From a virus (lineage: Duplodnaviria; Caudoviricetes), in the IMG/VR virus record IMGVR_UViG_2706795967_000001, positions 2,612 through 66,611 of that record: a DNA stretch of 64,000 nucleotides. The stretch is one strand, 5' to 3'. Below the pieces are notes generated by a model. The model was not told the DNA's origin. It saw only the letters and a program-made list of their open reading frames with translations, and searched no databases. The position numbers and the translations under genes were made by a program. Shown piece after piece: positions 6,206 through 62,252 of this stretch; the stretch's first letter is position 1, and each line of letters opens with the position of its first letter.

Positions 6206-6526
6206 ATGGCTGAAGCAGGCGCAATCGAAGACGTCAAAGACCTCCTCCCGGCGGAGAATGACTGGACCGACGACAAGATCGGGGCGAAGCTAGACGCCGG
6301 TCGTACCGTGTTCGGCGTCGTTCAGAATTACTGGGAGTCGCAGGCCGCACGGTTCCATGCTGCGATGGACGTGAACGAGAGCGGTAGCGTCCGCAGCTTC
6401 TCTCGCCTCTACGACAACGCCCTGAAGCAGGCCGAATACTGGTCGAGCCGTGTCGCGAAAGAGGAAGAGGACAACGAAGATCCTCCAATAGACCACGCCA
6501 CGATCCATCTCGCAACGAGGCTCTGA
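6206..6526 (+). CDS. Head-to-tail adaptor
   Basis: Position, size (106 aa), AAGGAG SD; DVNESGSVRSFS motif typical of actinophage adaptors. Confidence 0.7.
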   Translation: MAEAGAIEDVKDLLPAENDWTDDKIGAKLDAGRTVFGVVQNYWESQAARFHAAMDVNESGSVRSFSRLYDNALKQAEYWSSRVAKEEEDNEDPPIDHATIHLATRL

Positions 6527-6915
6527 TGGAGCACGCGGGTACACTGCCGTTCCTTCGAAACGGCACGCTGATGTTCATCAAGCAAGACCCCACGTGGGTA
6601 ACCCTGACGCCCAAGGGCAGTTCAGAGGCGTCTCGTGGCCCCGGAGGTGGTTTTGTTAAGGCATCAGGCACCCCACGGCCCGCACAGCAAGTCAAGCTAA
6701 TCTCAAGGGGTGGAGAAGGCACGACTTCTGGAGAGGGTGGGTTCGACCTCCAGTACGAATACGTGATCGTAGGTGCTCACGACGCTTCGATCGCGGTCGG
6801 TGACGAATTCACTCTCGGAGACAACCGATTTTACGTTTACTCCATGGACCCTTACAACGGGTACGAGGTGAAGGCGTACGCTCGTCAGCACGGCAGGAAG
6901 CCGACCGATGGGTAA
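6526..6915 (+). CDS. Head-to-tail stopper
   Basis: Position; beta-rich C-terminus IAVGDEFTLGDNRFYVY. Confidence 0.65.
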   Translation: MEHAGTLPFLRNGTLMFIKQDPTWVTLTPKGSSEASRGPGGGFVKASGTPRPAQQVKLISRGGEGTTSGEGGFDLQYEYVIVGAHDASIAVGDEFTLGDNRFYVYSMDPYNGYEVKAYARQHGRKPTDG

Positions 6916-7258
6916 GATGCGAATCAAGTACGACGACCGAAAACTCCGCAGGAACGTGGAGAATCTGGACGAGTACTACGACGACATGATCAAGGCGATA
7001 GTCGAATATCACGCCGCTCAGGGTGAGATCGACATGAAGACGAATGCTCCCTGGACAGACCGCACCACGGCGGCTCGACAGGGGCTGTACACGGTCGTGA
7101 ACCACGAAGGCAAGGGTCACTACACGATCATCTTCAGTCACACCGTTCATTACGGAATCTGGCTCGAGGTTAAGTTCTCCGGTCGTGACGCGATCATCAT
7201 GCCGACCGTGCTCAGTCGAGGAAGAGCCCTCATGAAAGACCTGAGGAAGATAGCATGA
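6908..7258 (+). CDS. Neck/tail-completion protein (HK97 gp10-like)
   Basis: NAPWTDRTTAARQGL and HTVHYGIWLEV motifs (APxxTG-like, YxxxLE-like). Confidence 0.65.
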   Translation: MGKMRIKYDDRKLRRNVENLDEYYDDMIKAIVEYHAAQGEIDMKTNAPWTDRTTAARQGLYTVVNHEGKGHYTIIFSHTVHYGIWLEVKFSGRDAIIMPTVLSRGRALMKDLRKIA

Positions 7259-7665
7259 GCAGCGGAGCGGTGTATCAGGCTCTCACGAACGACCCTACCC
7301 TCCAAACTCTCTGTGGCGGAACAGACAATTTCGTGTTCCCCGATTATGCGATGGAAAGCGCTCCTCGTGACGGTGTCTTTCTCATTTTGCGATGGGGTGC
7401 GCAGGATGTCACTCGCGCAATTCGCAGAGGGCCTGTCGACCTCATTGTGTGGGCACATCAGCCCAAGGAAGATTCCACGGATTACACCCTGATCAATCGT
7501 GTACTGAATCGTGCCAGAGACGTTCTCGAAGCGATGCCGAATACACCTGGACCAGACGATATCCGAGTGAACGACGTTGCCTTTCAAGGCAACGGAGGGA
7601 ACCTGTATGACCCAGGGTTCCAGACGATTACGAAGAACTCAGTGTACCGTGTGCTTCTGGCATAG
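7255..7665 (+). CDS. Tail terminator protein
   Basis: Position before the tail tube gene; 136 aa; AVYQALTND N-terminus. Confidence 0.6.
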   Translation: MSSGAVYQALTNDPTLQTLCGGTDNFVFPDYAMESAPRDGVFLILRWGAQDVTRAIRRGPVDLIVWAHQPKEDSTDYTLINRVLNRARDVLEAMPNTPGPDDIRVNDVAFQGNGGNLYDPGFQTITKNSVYRVLLA

Positions 7666-7694
7666 GGTATGATGTACCATATAACACGGAGGTA

Positions 7695-8051
7695 ATGATG
7701 GCGAATTCGAGCAACAAGCGACCTGCTGACAACGCTGAGCGGGCGCCGGAGACCACGGTTCAGGACAACGAACCCCTGACCCGTCAGGACCCGGCGATCA
7801 TCGAGACGCAGACCGCTGCGCCCGAAGGTTTGGACACCTCGTCCGGCAAGTTCGTCCAGCATCTGCCGCACAACCTGTTCGGCGCTCGCGTCATCAGCGA
7901 GGACGACTGGAAGTCGATCGGCGTCTACGACCAGGCGAGTGTCGAGTGGAACGAGGCCAACGGCTTCCGACTCCCGGTCGAGATGTTCAACGACGGTGCC
8001 CTCCAGTACCTGACCAATCGCGACGACGGTTTTCGAGTCGTCGGCGGCTGA
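7695..8051 (+). CDS. Hypothetical protein upstream of tail tube, ends VVGG
   Basis: GGAGG SD; coupled stop/start with the next ORF. Confidence 0.7.
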   Translation: MMANSSNKRPADNAERAPETTVQDNEPLTRQDPAIIETQTAAPEGLDTSSGKFVQHLPHNLFGARVISEDDWKSIGVYDQASVEWNEANGFRLPVEMFNDGALQYLTNRDDGFRVVGG

Positions 8052-8236
8052 TGGAGGAGCTTCGCTGTGACGGGAAACTGCACGGTATCCTCAAGGGGAA
8101 GTTCCTCGAGGTCAAGTGTGGTTCTCGTCGCTGCGGAGCTAAACAGGGTGTGACAGTGTTTCACCTATTCCACACGGAGAGCGGGGCTCTTCTATCAACA
8201 ACGAAGAAACGTGAAGAAGGGAAGACCCCAGAATGA
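8051..8236 (+). CDS. Small Zn-ribbon-like protein (61 aa)
   Basis: ATG overlaps upstream TGA; ELRCDGKLH...EVKCGSRRCG resembles Mu Com-like zinc ribbons. Confidence 0.55.
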   Translation: MEELRCDGKLHGILKGKFLEVKCGSRRCGAKQGVTVFHLFHTESGALLSTTKKREEGKTPE

Positions 8237-9096
8237 CCGCTCCGATGCAGACCGCGCTTCCGTACGGTGTCCGTGACATCAAGCTCACCCCGTACATCGA
8301 CGCGCTGGGTACCGTTCTCGGCACCTCCAGTGTCGACCTGCCCTACGCACAGACCCTCAGCTTCTCCGAAGCGGAGGAGACCACCGAACTCCGTGGCGAC
8401 GACAAGCTGGTGACCATCCACGGCCAGGGCGCGCAGGTCGACCTGTCGCTCGAGTCGGGCGGCATCTCGCTCGCAGCCTGGAAGATCCTCACCGGCGGTT
8501 CGCTCGTGGAGGAGGGCGTCGCACCCAACCGCCGGATCCGCCTCCGCAAGCGCTCCAGCGACGTTCGTCCGTACTTCCGGGTCGAGGGCCAGTCGATCAG
8601 CGACGCGGGCGGCGACGTCCACGTGACGATCTTCCGGTGCCGCCTCAACGGCGACCTGGCGGGCGATTTCACCGACGGCGAGTTCTTCGTCTCGAACGCC
8701 TCCGGACAGGGTCTGCCGCTGTTGGACGACACCAACGACCTGCTCTACGACTTCGTCCAGAACGAGCAGAAGTCGGCCATTTCGCTCACGCCGACTCCGA
8801 ACCCGCTGCCCACTCCTCAGAACGTCGCAGCGGGCGAGGTCACCGCCGCGACGGTCGCTCTCAACTGGGACGACGTGGTCGGCGCGACCGAGTACAAGGT
8901 GCAGCAGTCGGTCAGCCCGTACTCGGCTTGGACCGATGTCTCAGAGGCCAACGGTGGCGAGCCCTCGGCGAGCAACACCACGGTCACCAGCCTCACGGCT
9001 TCCACCGCGTACAAGTTCCGGGTCAAGGCAGTCCTGCCCGCCGGAACCTCGGACGCCTCGGTCGACACCGGCGTCGTCACCACCGCAGCATCCTGA
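8233..9096 (+). CDS. Major tail (tube) protein with C-terminal fibronectin type III domain
   Basis: LPYGVRDIKLTP...ELRGDD N-terminus; FN3 pattern PTPQNVAAGEVTAATVALNWDDV...Y.V...SLTASTAYKFRVKAV. Confidence 0.85.
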   Translation: MTAPMQTALPYGVRDIKLTPYIDALGTVLGTSSVDLPYAQTLSFSEAEETTELRGDDKLVTIHGQGAQVDLSLESGGISLAAWKILTGGSLVEEGVAPNRRIRLRKRSSDVRPYFRVEGQSISDAGGDVHVTIFRCRLNGDLAGDFTDGEFFVSNASGQGLPLLDDTNDLLYDFVQNEQKSAISLTPTPNPLPTPQNVAAGEVTAATVALNWDDVVGATEYKVQQSVSPYSAWTDVSEANGGEPSASNTTVTSLTASTAYKFRVKAVLPAGTSDASVDTGVVTTAAS

Positions 9097-9137
9097 TCCT
9101 CAGCTAGACACGTTTCTCGGAGCCCTAGGAGGCCAAC

Positions 9138-9701
9138 ATGTCGAATCCCAACGAAGAACTCACCCTCGCAGCCGGATGGGGACAGGTCAAGCCGCACCAC
9201 GTGCTCGACCTCCCATCCGGCTCGAAGGTTCTCGTCAAAGAGCTGGAGATCCAGGATCTGCTCAAGATGGGGATCCTCGATCTCGTCGATTCCTTCTCTC
9301 AGGAGATCCTGCCGAAGAACACGCCCAAGGGCGGTTCCGCGGAGAAACAGTTCCTTCAAGACCTGGCGGAGAACTCCGGCCAGTTCGAGAAGATGGTCGA
9401 CGTGATGAATCAGATCGCGGCTTCGGCTGTCGCCAAACCTCCCGTGACCTACGTCGCCCCGCCGAAGCCCGGTACGCCCGCCGAGGATCTCGATCCGGAC
9501 AAGATCTACGCTCACCTCATCCCTCTCGAGGATCGCATCGCCATCTTCGAGAAGGCGGTGGTCGGGATGGAAGACTTGTTTCGCCCTGGCGAAGGACAAG
9601 CCGAAGGTGTGGCAGATATGGCAAATGTCCAAGGAGTTCCAGAAAACTCCGGCGGAGCTCATCGGAGTGTCGCATCCCACCCGAGCCTTCTTTCTGAATA
9701 G
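9138..9701 (+). CDS. Tail assembly chaperone (short form)
   Basis: Between tail tube and tape measure; AGGAGG SD; overlapped by a +1-frame ORF. Confidence 0.8.
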   Translation: MSNPNEELTLAAGWGQVKPHHVLDLPSGSKVLVKELEIQDLLKMGILDLVDSFSQEILPKNTPKGGSAEKQFLQDLAENSGQFEKMVDVMNQIAASAVAKPPVTYVAPPKPGTPAEDLDPDKIYAHLIPLEDRIAIFEKAVVGMEDLFRPGEGQAEGVADMANVQGVPENSGGAHRSVASHPSLLSE

Positions 9702-36993: not shown

Positions 36994-37533
36994 ATGTCGG
37001 AAGACACCACCGCAACGACCGAGGAAGGTCGCATCGTCGCACCCCGCAACGTGCAGGAGATGCGGGAACTGAAGGCAGTCAAGGCCACCGAGGCATCCAC
37101 CTCGTTCGCGAACTTCATGAACGCCAACCTCGCGAACGCCGAGGGCTACACCCCGGTCACCCCCGAGCAGGCGTGGACCCTGATCTACACGCACCGTGTC
37201 TGGCAGGGCTCCGACGAGCGAGCCGCCGAGAAGGAGGCGCTCAAGACCCAGAAGAGCGCCGCCGCCGAGGCCAAGAAGGCCGAGCGCGAGGCCAAGAAGC
37301 AGGAGCGCGAGCGCCTCGCGGCCGAGAAGAAGGCCGAGAAGGATCGCAAGGCCGCCGAGAAGAAGGCGAAGGAGGCCGAGGCCGGCGAGGACCTCGAGGC
37401 CGCCGACACCGAGGGCGAGGGCGAGATCGCTCCCCGCAAGCGCAAGCCGCGCAGCCGGACTCCGAAGGCCGAGACGCCCGCCGAGACCCCGGCCGAGTCC
37501 GAGGCAGTCGAACCCGGCGCCGACGGATTCTGA
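36994..37533 (+). CDS. Ala/Lys/Glu-rich protein (179 aa)
   Basis: GAGGAAGG SD; extreme GC3 bias; histone-H1-like AEKKA repeats; shares a motif with 27119-27712. Confidence 0.8.
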   Translation: MSEDTTATTEEGRIVAPRNVQEMRELKAVKATEASTSFANFMNANLANAEGYTPVTPEQAWTLIYTHRVWQGSDERAAEKEALKTQKSAAAEAKKAEREAKKQERERLAAEKKAEKDRKAAEKKAKEAEAGEDLEAADTEGEGEIAPRKRKPRSRTPKAETPAETPAESEAVEPGADGF

Positions 37534-37853
37534 TCTTCCCCACAAGGGAGCCAGTCTCCCGATCCGGTGAACACCTGCCAGTGAAGCGGCGGATCGGGGG
37601 TTCTGGAAGGCATCAGTGCAGAGAGGCGACGACCGACCACAGTGGATCCTCTTCCCGCGTCGGCGTTGGTACTGATGTCTTCCAGAGCCAGTTGGCTCTG
37701 CTATCGTCAGGGACGGTCAGCGTAGATGCATCCTTCTACGGCCGGGAACTGGCGCGAAGAATTGGGACCACCTATCTTAGAGGTAGGCTCGAGACGAGTA
37801 ACGGACCCGACGGGCGATGCCGAAGCGGCTCCCTGGCGGTAGCAGAACCAATT
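37534..37853 (+). ncRNA. Candidate large structured non-coding RNA (~320 nt)
   Basis: Stems 37556-37566/37590-37600 (11 bp), 37599-37619/37669-37689 (21 bp, 3 G-U) and 37690-37713/37830-37853 (24 bp, 3 G-U, 1 mismatch), with internal hairpins; no credible ORF. Confidence 0.6.
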
Positions 37854-37876
37854 GGACAGACGAGAAAGGAAACACG

Positions 37877-39022
37877 GTGACAGAGTTGCCGTTCGTCCGC
37901 TCCTCAGAGAGGGGCGCATACAAGAGCTGTCCTCAGCGCTGGTATTGGGCCTATGTCGAGAAGCTGGTCCCCAGCGCAGTTGTCCTCGGCGCTCGCGACT
38001 TCGGCACCGGACTCCACCTCGCAATGGCGGAATTCTACATCCCCGGTTTGAAGCGAGGCCGGGATCTCATCGAGACCTTCGACGAATGGGCGAGGCAGGC
38101 CAAGAACGAGGCCACCGCCACAGAGAAGGGTCGCAAGAACTTCAACGAAGCCGAGTTCAATGAAGAGTGCGAAAAGATCAGGCACGCTCTTCGCGAGCAC
38201 ATGAGGATCACTAACGGCAATCCTCACTGGGAAGTGATCGCCAATGAGCGCACTTTCGCCGCCGACATTCGCGGTAAGGCTATCGCCGTCGGAACCATCG
38301 ACCTCGTCATCCGAGACACCAAGACCGGTAAGCTCTGGATAATTGACTGGAAGACCTCCAAGGGTTTCCCGCACCCCGAGGCGTACAAGTTCAACGATCA
38401 GGGCGGAAGCTACTCGGCCATCGCCACCACGATCCTTCGCCACCTCGGCCTGATTGGCCCGCAGGAGAAGATCAAGGGCATGGTGTTCGTGGTTCTCCGG
38501 AAGGTGCTTCCGGATGAGCGACCGCAGAACCCCGACGGGCTGTACTGCAATCAGCCGAAGAAGGATCACTACATCGACCAGCTCGGCAAGGAGCTTGAAT
38601 ACGAGCCCGGAGAGCTAGAGGGCATGACCCTCAAGCAACTGCAAGCCGAGGCACTGGAGAACGAAGTCGTCGTGTACGGCGAAGTATCCAAGAACCAGCC
38701 CATGCCGGTGATCAAGGACTATCCCGTCGAGCGCACGGTGAAGCAGCAGAGCCACCAGCTCAAGCGACTCGTGGACGACGTCACCGTCATGGACATGGCA
38801 CGCAAGGGCGAGATCCCGATCCTCAAGGCTCCAGGCAGTCTCTGCCCGTACTGCGACTTCTTCCAGCTGTGCGAGATGGACGAGAGCCAGGGCGATGTCG
38901 AGGGTATGAAGCAGCTCATGTTCCGGAAGCGCGATCCGTATCACGATCATCGTGAAGGAGCGCAGAACAGCAAGCTGTCAGTGACCGCCGATTCCAAGCT
39001 CAAGTACGAGGGAGGAACGTAG
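37877..39022 (+). CDS. RecB/Cas4-family (PD-(D/E)xK) exonuclease
   Basis: SERGAYKSCPQRWYW, GTGLH, E...GTIDLV...IIDWKT, C-terminal CPYCDF; GTG 37877 after GAAAGGA. Confidence 0.85.
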   Translation: MTELPFVRSSERGAYKSCPQRWYWAYVEKLVPSAVVLGARDFGTGLHLAMAEFYIPGLKRGRDLIETFDEWARQAKNEATATEKGRKNFNEAEFNEECEKIRHALREHMRITNGNPHWEVIANERTFAADIRGKAIAVGTIDLVIRDTKTGKLWIIDWKTSKGFPHPEAYKFNDQGGSYSAIATTILRHLGLIGPQEKIKGMVFVVLRKVLPDERPQNPDGLYCNQPKKDHYIDQLGKELEYEPGELEGMTLKQLQAEALENEVVVYGEVSKNQPMPVIKDYPVERTVKQQSHQLKRLVDDVTVMDMARKGEIPILKAPGSLCPYCDFFQLCEMDESQGDVEGMKQLMFRKRDPYHDHREGAQNSKLSVTADSKLKYEGGT

Positions 39023-60571: not shown

Positions 60572-61968
60572 TGCCGAGTCCTGAGGAGAAGGCCGAGTAC
60601 AACAGCGAGCCCGAACTCCTTCCCTTCGAGGGCACGCACGAAGACCCAGAGGGCGAGGAAGTCGAGCATCCGTATCTAGGCACCACCCGCAAGTTCAGCG
60701 AGGGGCAGCTGTCGCGAGCCAAGGGTCTCCACGGCAAGGGCAATCCTCCCGACTTCCTGGAATATCACGTTCCACTGGATCGTCGTGGACCCTACAAGCT
60801 TCTCGCTTTCCCCGGCAAGCTGAACGAGCGAGAGGGCGCGGCCTCCTACGCGCTGTGCAACGGAACCACTCGCACCGGCAACAGCCTCAGGGACGTGGGT
60901 CGCCCATGCAAGGCGAAGGCGATCAACATGAGTGGCTTCTGTTCGAGGCATGGCGGAGCACTCTGCCCACTCGATCGCAAGAGGATCAACTGGGATACGG
61001 TTCCTCGACACATCAAGTTCAAGTACGGTCGTCTTCCAGTGGACGATCTGGACGACGAAGAGCTGGCTCGCGGCCAGATCAGGAAGCCGGACGGCTCGTG
61101 GACACAGAACAAGTCCGTGTCCGCAGAAATCCACAACGCCATGATCGCCAAGCTGTTCGACCGCAGCGACGAGATGTTGCGCGAGAATCTCCTAAAGGCA
61201 GTGGAGACCTTCGCCGAGATCGCGACAGGCACAGCGTACGAGCCAGCAGATCGACTGAAGGCAGCCGAGTTCATCTTCACTCGACTCAGGGGTAAGGTAC
61301 CCACTGAGATCAAGCTCGGTATAGACAAGCCATTTGAGAAGGTGCTCGATGCAGTCTTGGTTGGAGGCAATCGTAGTGACTCTCGCGCTGCTCGTGCTAC
61401 TGGTCTGGATGACTATCTCGACGCTGACGTCGTATCCGTGGAAGGAGCCGAAGCTGAAGATAGTGAAGAGGCTCCTGACGTGGATCGAGGAGCGGTATTC
61501 GAGGCCACCCGACGGGAGCTAGAAGCTCTGCAGGAAGAGCCGATCGAAGACGACGACGAATCGGATATCGACGAGGAAGGCTACGACTACACGGATCCTC
61601 GCGACCGTACCCTCGCACGAGATCTGATGCCGAAGGAAGTCGTTTCCACTGGATCGGCTGGGAAGCCCACCACCGACAAGCCTTACGGAGGATACGAGGC
61701 TCAGCGATACGAGCAGAAGCAGCACGAGAACGCGCAGGAGGCGGAGGCTCGTCTCAACAAGCTGTCTCGTAAGCGCAAGACTCCTCAGGAAGTGGCGGAA
61801 GAACGGAAGGCTCACAAGGAGGAGATGCGTCGCAACATCGCTCGTCGCAAGGGAGCCATGAAGCGCGGTTACTCGAATCTCCCGGAAGGCGTGAAGGCTG
61901 AGGTGGAAGAGGACGGGGAAGACGTGACCTTCCGCTTCAAGTCCAGTGGAGAGGAGAAGGACGCGTGA
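60571..61968 (+). CDS. Probable terminase small subunit (465 aa)
   Basis: CNGTTRTG...PCKAKA...FCSRHGG zinc motif; helical DRLKAAEFIFTR; GTG overlaps upstream TAG. Confidence 0.65.
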   Translation: MPSPEEKAEYNSEPELLPFEGTHEDPEGEEVEHPYLGTTRKFSEGQLSRAKGLHGKGNPPDFLEYHVPLDRRGPYKLLAFPGKLNEREGAASYALCNGTTRTGNSLRDVGRPCKAKAINMSGFCSRHGGALCPLDRKRINWDTVPRHIKFKYGRLPVDDLDDEELARGQIRKPDGSWTQNKSVSAEIHNAMIAKLFDRSDEMLRENLLKAVETFAEIATGTAYEPADRLKAAEFIFTRLRGKVPTEIKLGIDKPFEKVLDAVLVGGNRSDSRAARATGLDDYLDADVVSVEGAEAEDSEEAPDVDRGAVFEATRRELEALQEEPIEDDDESDIDEEGYDYTDPRDRTLARDLMPKEVVSTGSAGKPTTDKPYGGYEAQRYEQKQHENAQEAEARLNKLSRKRKTPQEVAEERKAHKEEMRRNIARRKGAMKRGYSNLPEGVKAEVEEDGEDVTFRFKSSGEEKDA

Positions 61969-62252
61969 GCAGCCTGGAAGAGCGCGAGAAGGCCGCATAC
62001 GAGAAGCTCGCAGAGGTCGTGACGGAACTCACGGCCATTCGGGACGAGATGTATCCACTCGACTCAAGTGACGAGGCAGAAGTTCCCACCTGCTGGGTTC
62101 TGTGTGTCGGATACGAGTCCATGCCGAACGGACAGCACCCCGGACTGGATGGTTCGGTGACGATCTTTCCTCGGGATGGTCGTCAGCCAGGATGGAAAAC
62201 ATCCGGGCTGCTGGGCGAGTGCCTCAGTCACATGGAGGGCGAAAGGGAATGA
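61965..62252 (+). CDS. Hypothetical protein (95 aa)
   Basis: GTGA coupling; GGAGAGGAG SD. Confidence 0.7.
   Translation: MSSLEEREKAAYEKLAEVVTELTAIRDEMYPLDSSDEAEVPTCWVLCVGYESMPNGQHPGLDGSVTIFPRDGRQPGWKTSGLLGECLSHMEGERE

Follow-up and report, generated by a model that had tools for sequence, protein, structure and literature searches.

The viral DNA considered here, referred to as the window, is a stretch of 64,000 nucleotides (nt) from IMG/VR record IMGVR_UViG_2706795967_000001 (positions 2,612 to 66,611), a 66.6-kb record of a Terapinvirus-like Gordonia phage. In the gap between two of its genes it carries a conserved RNA element of about 170 nt (37687-37856, on the + strand, as are all features below unless stated otherwise), which is the last of three folded domains in that gap and is called the domain 3 RNA. 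Covariance model R1, which was built in this analysis and against which every candidate locus was checked, recognises the element with 168 bits and an E value of 2e-39. It is a phage-encoded structured small RNA of a family that is absent from Rfam 15 and that is described in none of the papers found in our literature searches; its members occur in about 65 phages of Gordonia and related bacteria. Comparison of these members shows an RNA with the predicted form of a long rod, in which the closing helix P1 is followed by a three-way junction with P2, by helix P1b, by two loops around helix P4, by P3 and by the terminal hairpins P3a and P3b; about 45 near-invariant bases are, in this model, held in place by freely covarying helices. 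The reading that we favour, with a probability of roughly 0.55, is that domain 3 is a stable trans-acting phage RNA that binds a conserved component of the host.

Fold and covariation of the domain 3 RNA

The gap (37534-37876) lies between the end of a gene for a protein of 179 amino acids (aa) at 37533 and the GTG start codon of an exonuclease gene at 37877. On the + strand RNAfold gives it a folding energy of -160.1 kcal/mol (z -5.79), which was equalled by none of 100 shuffled sequences, as compared to a z of -1.44 on the - strand. Both parts of the gap fold better on the + strand, with z values of -5.21 versus -1.40 for 37534-37686 and of -5.58 versus -3.28 for 37687-37856. An earlier note on this DNA had described the region as a candidate structured RNA of about 320 nt, and all the stems that it named were found where it had placed them: the 11 base pairs (bp) of domain 1 (D1; 37556-66 with 37590-600), the 21 bp of domain 2 (D2; 37599-619 with 37669-689, including three G-U pairs) and the outer stem of domain 3, which extends over 26 positions (37688-713 with 37830-855) with three G-U pairs and one C-A mismatch. 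It was also correct in observing that, of the seven non-Watson-Crick positions of the two long stems, all but one are + strand G-U pairs.

For domain 3, strong covariation in 29 sequences now supports the proposal of a structured, non-coding + strand RNA that belongs to no Rfam family. The structural model comprises 29 distinct sequences and 58 pairs, in an alignment that was fitted to the model and thereby favours it. Standard pairs are formed in 88.5% of the model cells, versus 31-46% when the partners are slid by 1-3 columns, and 46 of the 58 pairs have changed on both sides. The model has a covariation score of 0.54; slid partners gave no more than 0.13, and none of 500 shuffles reached the observed values. 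With a plain MAFFT alignment, which is independent of the model, RNAalifold recovered P1, P1b, P4 and P3. The well-aligned helices (1198 cells) contain 97 G-U pairs and 23 A-C combinations, and this ratio of four to one indicates that the fold was selected in + strand RNA rather than in DNA or in the - strand.

The closing helix P1 is formed by a 5' strand at 37688-37713 and a 3' strand at 37830-37855. All of its 26 pairs have changed on both sides, with 93% of the cells paired, and it measures 20-30 bp in every member; its sequence is unrelated between lineages. A purine-rich joiner (37714-37721) leads to the side hairpin P2 (37722-37739), which stands at the three-way junction of P1 and P1b and covaries at five out of five pairs. 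The loop of P2 is variable, and some Kenoshavirus phages have a 27-nt insertion there that forms an extra hairpin. In P1b the strand GCCG (37741-37744) faces CGGC (37826-37829); three of the four pairs show double changes, 96% of the cells are paired, and the combinations CCG/CGG, CUG/CAG, UCG/CGA, GGG/CCC and CAG/CUG all occur.

The core that follows is nearly invariant. Its 5' half (37745-37761) consists of the loop A strand GGAACU, the P4 strand GGCGCG (37751-56) and the loop B strand AAGAA and is identical in 27 of the 29 sequences. Its 3' half (37811-37829) contains CGGG of loop B, CG-A-UGCC of P4, GAAG of loop A and the 3' strand of P1b. In P4, GGCGCG pairs with 37815-21 as GGCGCG opposite CG(A)UGCC; in the uncultivated viral contigs L085 and L087 this becomes GUCCCG opposite GG(A)GGAC or GG(A)UGAC, with a G-C to U-A replacement in both contigs and a G-U to C-G replacement in L085. 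Across the family, loop A is GGAAC(U/A) opposite G(A/U)N and loop B is AAGAA opposite CGG(G/A). The eight positions of P3 (UUGGGACC at 37762-37769, pairing with GGACCCGA at 37803-37810) read UUGGNNNC opposite GNNNCCGA in the family as a whole, with one A-A mismatch in all members. The fifth pair can be A-U, G-C or C-G, the last one C-G or U-A, and a U-G pair is replaced by C-G in contig L075. The distal module (37771-37798) is composed of P3a (37771-87) and P3b (CUCG-AGA-CGAG, 37788-98) and precedes UAAC, which is UAA(C/A) across the family. P3a is variable, and all five of its modelled pairs covary in what is a poor alignment (67% paired). The P3b sequence CGAGAC is invariant except in L015, where CUCG/CGAG is replaced by CUAG/CUAG, which is a double change.

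A search for extra covariation among all column pairs, as pseudoknots would produce, gave nothing usable and was swamped by phylogenetic signal. The long-range pseudoknot GCCAGT/ACTGGC between domains 1 and 3 that had been suggested earlier was not supported, since phages without a domain 1 also conserve ACUGGC, which belongs to loop A and P4. Two local resemblances were also discarded. The 5' strand of loop B, GCGAAGAA, equals what we take to be the bulged strand of the kink-turn Kt-7, but a Kt-7-like kink-turn, in which tandem G-A and A-G pairs come after a 3-nt bulge and GA is needed on the opposite strand, was rejected because that strand, CGG(G/A), has G at position 1n and lacks the required A. 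Mimicry of ribosomal RNA was considered for a 9-nt identity (CGCGAAGAA) with what is presumably the sequence of 16S helix 31, and this identity is at about chance level for RNAs of such sizes.

The Rfam search that the earlier note had proposed matched no family, including tRNA, tmRNA, RNase P, group I intron and YrlA, and the compensatory changes that it had proposed to look for are abundant in the homologs of domain 3. With Rfam 15, no match at gathering scores was obtained in the whole window, two chance-level matches (E 6-9), both outside the element, were obtained at E<=10 on the interval, and chance-level matches only, none of them on the element, were obtained at E<=1 with seven other family members. 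ARAGORN predicted 0 tRNA or tmRNA genes in the window. A conserved coding frame, which had been named as an observation that would argue against an RNA, was not found in the homologs. A protein-coding gene was rejected, as most of the six frames contain stops in most members; the insertions and deletions between members are not multiples of three, and translated cross-matches between loci occur in several frames on both strands and are confined to the element.

Occurrence and separability of the element

Family members were sought by blastn with the interval, followed by exact-pattern scans built on the invariant core. The carriers are the window phage, its relative Suzy, 51 matched records of Deejayvirinae and about 13 uncultivated viral or metagenomic contigs. 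The Deejayvirinae concerned are Gordonia phages, those with annotation being Kenoshavirus or Tanisvirus. In them the blastn match was limited to the last 120-150 nt of the interval, and the element is located inside an unannotated gap of 270-295 nt that follows a small membrane-protein gene and precedes a gene of about 150 aa. Uncultivated viral contigs with the element are L019, L021, L023, L027, L049, L075, L085, L087 and, in part, L088, and metagenome contigs are L036, L039 and L043. Model R1 finds one copy per genome, also in the 66.6-kb window genome, and the G+C content of the members ranges from 53 to 71%.

Among 50,697 cultured phage records the element was found only in Gordonia phages. 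No copy was found by two exact-pattern scans covering the genomes of 185,579 bacterial and archaeal species; the one match, in Thioclava, was rejected by the covariance model. Additional hits from scans with loose anchors were mostly G+C-rich coding DNA and were discarded, with non-members making up 14 of 17 hits in the metagenome scan, five of six new loci with the 5' anchor and 26 of 27 with the 3' anchor. Beside the RNA, contig L021 carries a gene for a PPE-family protein (613-1626, +; PF00823, E 4e-58, plus a PPE-SVP C-terminal region), which is unusual cargo for a phage and suggests a Mycobacterium-like host.

The idea of a single RNA of 320 nt with three domains was correct in that the + strand RNA is folded, but it does not form one unit, because domain 3 and domains 1-2 occur apart. 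Domain 3 is present without domains 1-2 in about 60 other phages, whereas domains 1-2 (37556-37689) were found only in the window phage, in Suzy, which is its closest relative (92% identity over 37400-37950), and in LilyPad, which comes next. A sequence search detected no homologs of D2 outside the Terapinvirus lineage. LilyPad has kept domains 1-2 and the same gene order and has lost domain 3. As only GCCAACTGGCTC and CAATTAG, the outer strands of P1, are retained (L002 3290-3346), LilyPad represents a clean internal deletion of the domain 3 RNA. Domain 3 is absent from LilyPad and stands alone in Deejayvirinae, and therefore it is a separable module: portable, single-copy and dispensable in one natural isolate. 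The hairpin AGAGCC-AGTT-GGCTCT, for which a switching role had been suggested, is kept in LilyPad as the scar of the P1 deletion, and no other sign of switching was seen, so that this suggestion is not supported.

The two upstream domains are probably separate, lineage-specific hairpins that end or stabilise the message of the upstream gene. D1 is a GC-rich hairpin in the minimum free energy fold (37556-37600). Pairing in its 11-bp stem survives three double changes, the strands being CCCGAUCC/GGAUCGGG in the window phage and Suzy versus CCCUGCCC/GGGCAGGG in LilyPad, and its loop differs in length between them; it probably marks or stabilises the end of the upstream-gene transcript. D2 (37599-37689) is predicted from the minimum free energy fold and the z value of 37534-37686, with the 21-bp stem enclosing a branched inner hairpin. 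It is near-identical in all three phages, with a single G-U to G-C difference. A further small hairpin, GGGAG-CCAGU-CUCCC (37546-37560), is located just 3' of the stop codon of the 179-aa gene; Suzy and LilyPad have it too, and it competes with the D1 stem for the first bases of the latter.

Transcription signals and neighbouring genes

In several uncultivated relatives the element is flanked by putative transcription signals. Sequences resembling -10 hexamers end 6 nt before the first P1 base in L085 (TATAAT), L087 (TGaTAGAAT) and both L019 and L075 (TAGGGT), and TATCGT ends 8 nt before it in L021; in these five contigs the first P1 base is a G. With T and A each at about 0.2 in G+C-rich contigs, chance would place TAnnnT within a 3-nt window in a few per cent of cases, as compared to the four out of about nine independent lineages in which it was seen. 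Because the upstream gene is divergent in L085 and L087, the RNA of these contigs must have a promoter of its own. On the 3' side, strong hairpins follow the element in L036 (15 bp), L019/L075 and L021. With its own -10-like hexamers and terminator-like hairpins, the element looks like a self-standing small-RNA gene and not like a switch of the exonuclease gene. Directly 3' of the RNA, L023 (9170-9255) and L049 (4228-4305) have a second structured domain, in which a long-range stem surrounds two hairpins; the stem sequence differs between the two contigs and its pairing is kept.

The arrangement in the Gordonia phages is different, with a hairpin preceding the element (D2 in the window, a 17-pair terminator-like hairpin in Deejayvirinae) and the next ribosome-binding site located 10-30 nt 3' of it. 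The Deejayvirinae hairpin (L003-L018; 483-523 in Madvan, L006) is accompanied by a T-run and lies 5 nt 5' of the RNA. The 17-nt loop, GAGUACUAACACUACUU, does not vary within the subfamily, a constancy that is unusual in plain terminators.

No partner protein emerged from the neighbouring genes. The gene upstream in the window (36994-37533, from the list of open reading frames, ORFs) encodes a basic, Lys/Glu/Ala-rich protein of 179 aa without a Pfam family; it provides context only, corresponds to hypothetical proteins in Suzy (gp53) and LilyPad (gp55) and is not beside the element in other lineages. The gene downstream (37865-39022, including the Shine-Dalgarno sequence AAAGGAAA and the GTG codon at 37877) encodes a Cas4/RecB-type PD-(D/E)XK exonuclease (PF12705, E 6e-20) for which the annotations of Suzy and LilyPad give exonuclease or Cas4 family exonuclease. 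The earlier note rightly had the element end about 10 nt before this Shine-Dalgarno sequence, as it ends at 37855, 10 nt 5' of AAAGGAAA. Its suggestion that the basic protein is the partner of the RNA was not borne out, since the flanking proteins are not common to the carrier lineages. The alternative of a switch gating the recombination genes is not supported either, because the downstream gene differs between lineages or is lacking within 125-400 nt. It encodes the exonuclease in the window, a protein of about 150 aa that belongs to no family in Deejayvirinae, and a Cys-rich ORF of 97 aa in L027; in L019/L075 and L023 no ORF of at least 50 aa is found for 125-400 nt downstream of the element. 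LilyPad lacks the element but retains the exonuclease gene together with its Shine-Dalgarno sequence.

Searches over wider regions agree with this. No relatives of window ORFs were found within 2-15 kb around the element in other lineages, and the flanks of divergent loci have no protein in common, only the element. Comparison of the whole genomes of the window phage and Madvan, two Gordonia phages that are not related otherwise, revealed only a lysin A domain, a DUF7213 protein and the domain 3 RNA as shared features. The DUF7213 protein (95 aa, 61965-62252, +; PF23850, phrog_4307; 46% identical to Madvan gp73) was rejected as an RNA partner, because LilyPad encodes it despite having no such RNA, while Avazak-type phages and six uncultivated carriers have the RNA and not the protein. 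A Pfam search with twenty neighbouring proteins returned only PD-(D/E)XK, a family with a tail-chaperone name, PPE and TROVE.

Possible modes of action

Of the proposals in the earlier note, the one that we favour is a trans-acting phage RNA or protein decoy. According to this reading, the segment 37687-37856 would be a small-RNA gene or an excisable module, with a stable and structured RNA as its product. The uncultivated relatives would transcribe it from a promoter of its own, starting at the first P1 base and with a terminator-like hairpin behind it, as the signals described above partly show. In the Gordonia phages, including that of the window, the RNA would be made within an operon transcript, between two co-directional genes, and the long P1 duplex most likely either allows excision by a double-strand-specific nuclease or provides a shield against exonucleases. 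The RNA would then act in trans, with about 45 invariant bases, located in loops A and B and in P4, P3 and P3b, serving as the working surface that binds a host-conserved component. The same surface is found in phages of 53-71% G+C that share no proteins, which suggests that the target is conserved among the hosts, unless the RNA is catalytic and thus its own target; as no phage protein travels with the RNA, a host component is indicated.

Such a target invites comparison with 6S RNA and actinobacterial Ms1, rod-shaped RNAs that bind RNA polymerase, with which the domain 3 RNA shares a size of about 170-200 nt, a long closing stem at its ends, a rod with internal loops and a plausible conserved host target. 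However, its centre has two small loops around the 6-bp G+C helix P4 instead of a large open bubble, its far stem of about 15 bp is too short to mimic upstream promoter DNA, and its primary sequence is invariant, unlike that of 6S RNA. No Rfam match to 6S or Ms1 was found in the window or with the interval. Membership of the 6S class was rejected because P4 covaries in L085/L087 at the place where 6S RNA has, between long closing and internal stems, the single-stranded bubble that is the template of its product RNA, and because the distal stem has only about 8+6 bp.

A tentative lead as to the host partner is the Ro60/Rsr ring protein, for which the domain 3 RNA might play a role like that of a Y RNA. 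In L023, a provirus-class record, a YrlA-like RNA, Rsr, orf231 and the element are encoded on one strand within 2.7 kb. The element (8999-9164) lies 0.8 kb 3' of the gene for a TROVE/vWA protein of 523 aa, which is Ro60/Rsr (Pfam E 3e-16), and the YrlA-like RNA 5' of rsr (locus 6433-8170) matches Rfam RF02553 below its gathering score (44 bits, E 7e-7). The record behind L027, G004, encodes an Rsr that is 69% identical to that of L023, about 5.6 kb upstream on the same strand, and the L023 and L027 loci have no detectable DNA similarity apart from the RNA. YrlA-type Y RNAs are expected within about 4 kb of rsr on the same strand; the distance in L023 is below this value and that in G004 is above it. 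A Ro-like protein is encoded in 50 of the 50,697 cultured phage records. Y RNAs, which in bacteria and phages include YrlA and Yrn1, are ligands of Ro60/Rsr. They are characterised by an effector module and by a long stem in which the two ends pair; this stem contains the Ro60 site and has a conserved 5' strand, which is GNCGAAN0-1G in YrlA and GGUCCGA in animals (PMC4201824; bioRxiv 10.1101/312249). According to Chen et al. 2014 (PMC4201824), YrlA lies beside Ro60 in mycobacteriophages and in a Gordonia species.

The domain 3 RNA resembles the Y RNAs in its size of 100-200 nt, in the pairing of both ends into a long stem, in a conserved bulged helix that lies within the rod and adjoins a 5'-strand CGAA(G) motif, and in a branched distal module. 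The elements CGAA, UUGGG and UCGAGAC of the YrlA consensus (RF02553) are found in it in the same order and with similar spacing, and there is also the proximity to rsr in L023 and the presence of Rsr in G004, together with the use of Ro and YrlA by phages of the same hosts. The conserved 5' strand of domain 3 (GGCGCGAAG; GUCCCGAAG in L085/L087) resembles the YrlA motif without matching its regular expression. It was also compared with GGUCCGAAG, which we take to be the 5'-strand sequence of animal Y RNAs. On the other hand, the RNA has no T stem, acceptor-like hairpin or D arm; instead of forming D or T loops, its UUGG is part of the P3 helix and its CGAGAC part of a triloop hairpin. Its terminal stem has no conserved sequence, and most carriers, including all Gordonia carriers tested, encode no Rsr. 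Membership of the YrlA type was rejected, given the missing tRNA-like module, the unmatched YrlA model and the double change in L015 that supports the P3b triloop hairpin; conversely, model R1 does not score YrlA loci. What can be envisaged, at long odds, is a phage Y RNA free of a tRNA module that docks onto host Ro60/Rsr via P4, loop B and P3 and thereby retargets or blocks RNA decay by Rsr and PNPase. The RNA would then be made early in infection, and two temperate relatives would carry their own rsr along with it.

Several observations weigh against the reading set out here. The link to Rsr is present in two out of ten searched carrier records, which possibly have a common ancestry; TROVE is absent from the eight others and from the window genome, Suzy, Madvan and Avazak. 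VanLee and Neville, which are Gordonia phages that encode Rsr, have YrlA and not this RNA. Known Y RNAs have their conserved helix near the ends, whereas here it is internal, at a distance of about 30 bp from them, and the Rfam YrlA model matches no member tested (at E<=10 for the interval and at E<=1 for seven others). The Gordonia phages show no promoter of the element's own, and a scan for sigma-70-type promoters around the window element found none. In these phages the next start codon follows 20-35 nt 3' of the element, and the ORF that comes next in L039 and L043 has its Shine-Dalgarno sequence inside the P1 3' strand, which fits a role in translation in cis. Finally, the ends, abundance and processing of the RNA are all three inferred from sequence. 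As a separate observation, VanLee (L091 3579-3655) and Neville (L092 3754-3870) contain an unannotated YrlA-like RNA before their Ro-like genes.

The position of the element relative to start codons raises the question whether it is a cis-acting intercistronic leader, with P1 as a processing or stability site and a core that binds a regulator and thus sets the stability or translation of the downstream message. We regard this as rather improbable, although the close spacing to a start codon in the window and Deejayvirinae extends to L027, the overlap in L039 and L043 fits it, P1 is held at 20 bp or more despite free sequence drift, and the element in cultured phages is always oriented as the surrounding genes. 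Sites for RNase III in T7-like and lambdoid phages, such as those of T7 and the lambda N leader, offer a parallel, being located between co-directional operon genes with a duplex of at least 20 bp just 5' of a ribosome-binding site. Those sites are, however, simple hairpins with an internal loop that are specific to a phage group, whereas domain 3 has a branched invariant core of 120 nt and occurs elsewhere as a stand-alone unit from promoter to terminator. A leader also has to be reconciled with downstream genes that are unrelated between lineages and with L019/L075, L023/L049 and L036, where there is no adjacent ORF, as well as with the survival of the exonuclease gene and its Shine-Dalgarno sequence in LilyPad. 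The approximately 45 invariant unpaired or core bases would be needless for a simple processing site, and the RNA in L085, L087 and L019 begins at its own -10 box.

The remaining explanations are considerably less probable than a leader. It is unlikely that the RNA acts on host RNA polymerase by processive antitermination, allowing early transcription to pass downstream hairpin terminators. The element is indeed at or near the start of rightward transcription units in L085, L087 and L019, is followed by terminator-like hairpins in L036, L019, L021, L023 and L049, is single-copy and in the early region in Deejayvirinae and the window phage, and has a core that stays the same in different hosts, as a ligand of the conserved RNA polymerase should. 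With the put RNAs of HK022 (putL and putR) and with the EAR element of Bacillus it shares a conserved fold, the lack of a protein partner nearby and a place early in the unit, sometimes before terminators. Yet the only strong terminator-like hairpin of Deejayvirinae is upstream of the element, put RNAs are double hairpins of about 70 nt for which a 26-bp P1 that closes after 170 nt would be needless, no end-to-end stem is known in put or EAR, so that size and fold differ, and Rfam searches found no sequence or model similarity to either. About equally doubtful is a riboswitch-like sensor or a new class of self-cleaving ribozyme, with the invariant internal loops as ligand pocket or active site. 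New ribozyme and riboswitch classes often come from phage DNA, and the combination of invariant joining regions, covarying helices and variable peripheral hairpins resembles that of aptamers and small ribozymes; but no known model matched at E<=1-10 and there is no mark of a cleavage site. With a P1 of 20-30 bp, far too stable for a ligand-controlled switch helix, no expression platform overlapping P1 except for the Shine-Dalgarno overlap in two members, and downstream genes that are without common function or absent, assignment to a riboswitch class was rejected. Least probable by far is a DNA-level element, such as an origin, a recombination or packaging site, a cruciform or a mobile element with inverted repeats. 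The P1 repeat does bound a portable segment at unrelated genomic places, next to recombination genes in the window phage, but it is free in sequence yet complementary, whereas a transposase would require terminal repeats of constant sequence. The excess of G-U over A-C, the much weaker fold on the - strand, the single copy per genome and the fixed orientation relative to transcription also speak against it. The RNA-based prophage origins of cluster A mycobacteriophages are a different thing (PMC7157519).

The structured small RNAs of actinobacterial phages are almost unexplored, and few candidate motifs combine an invariant core with portability across unrelated lineages, the lack of a partner protein and loss in a close relative. 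Taken together, these properties suggest that the domain 3 RNA is self-sufficient and encounters a host component that is conserved. The SEA-PHAGES collection contains both carriers (Suzy and dozens of Deejayvirinae) and the natural deletion mutant LilyPad, with Gordonia terrae 3612 and G. rubripertincta as laboratory hosts. If the Ro60/Rsr lead is correct, the world of Y RNAs would be enlarged beyond tRNA mimics and phage interference with RNA surveillance would acquire a function; a Y-RNA role would also imply a protein-free takeover of host RNA quality control by lytic phages. If this lead fails, the RNA remains a well-defined new target for structural and pull-down work.

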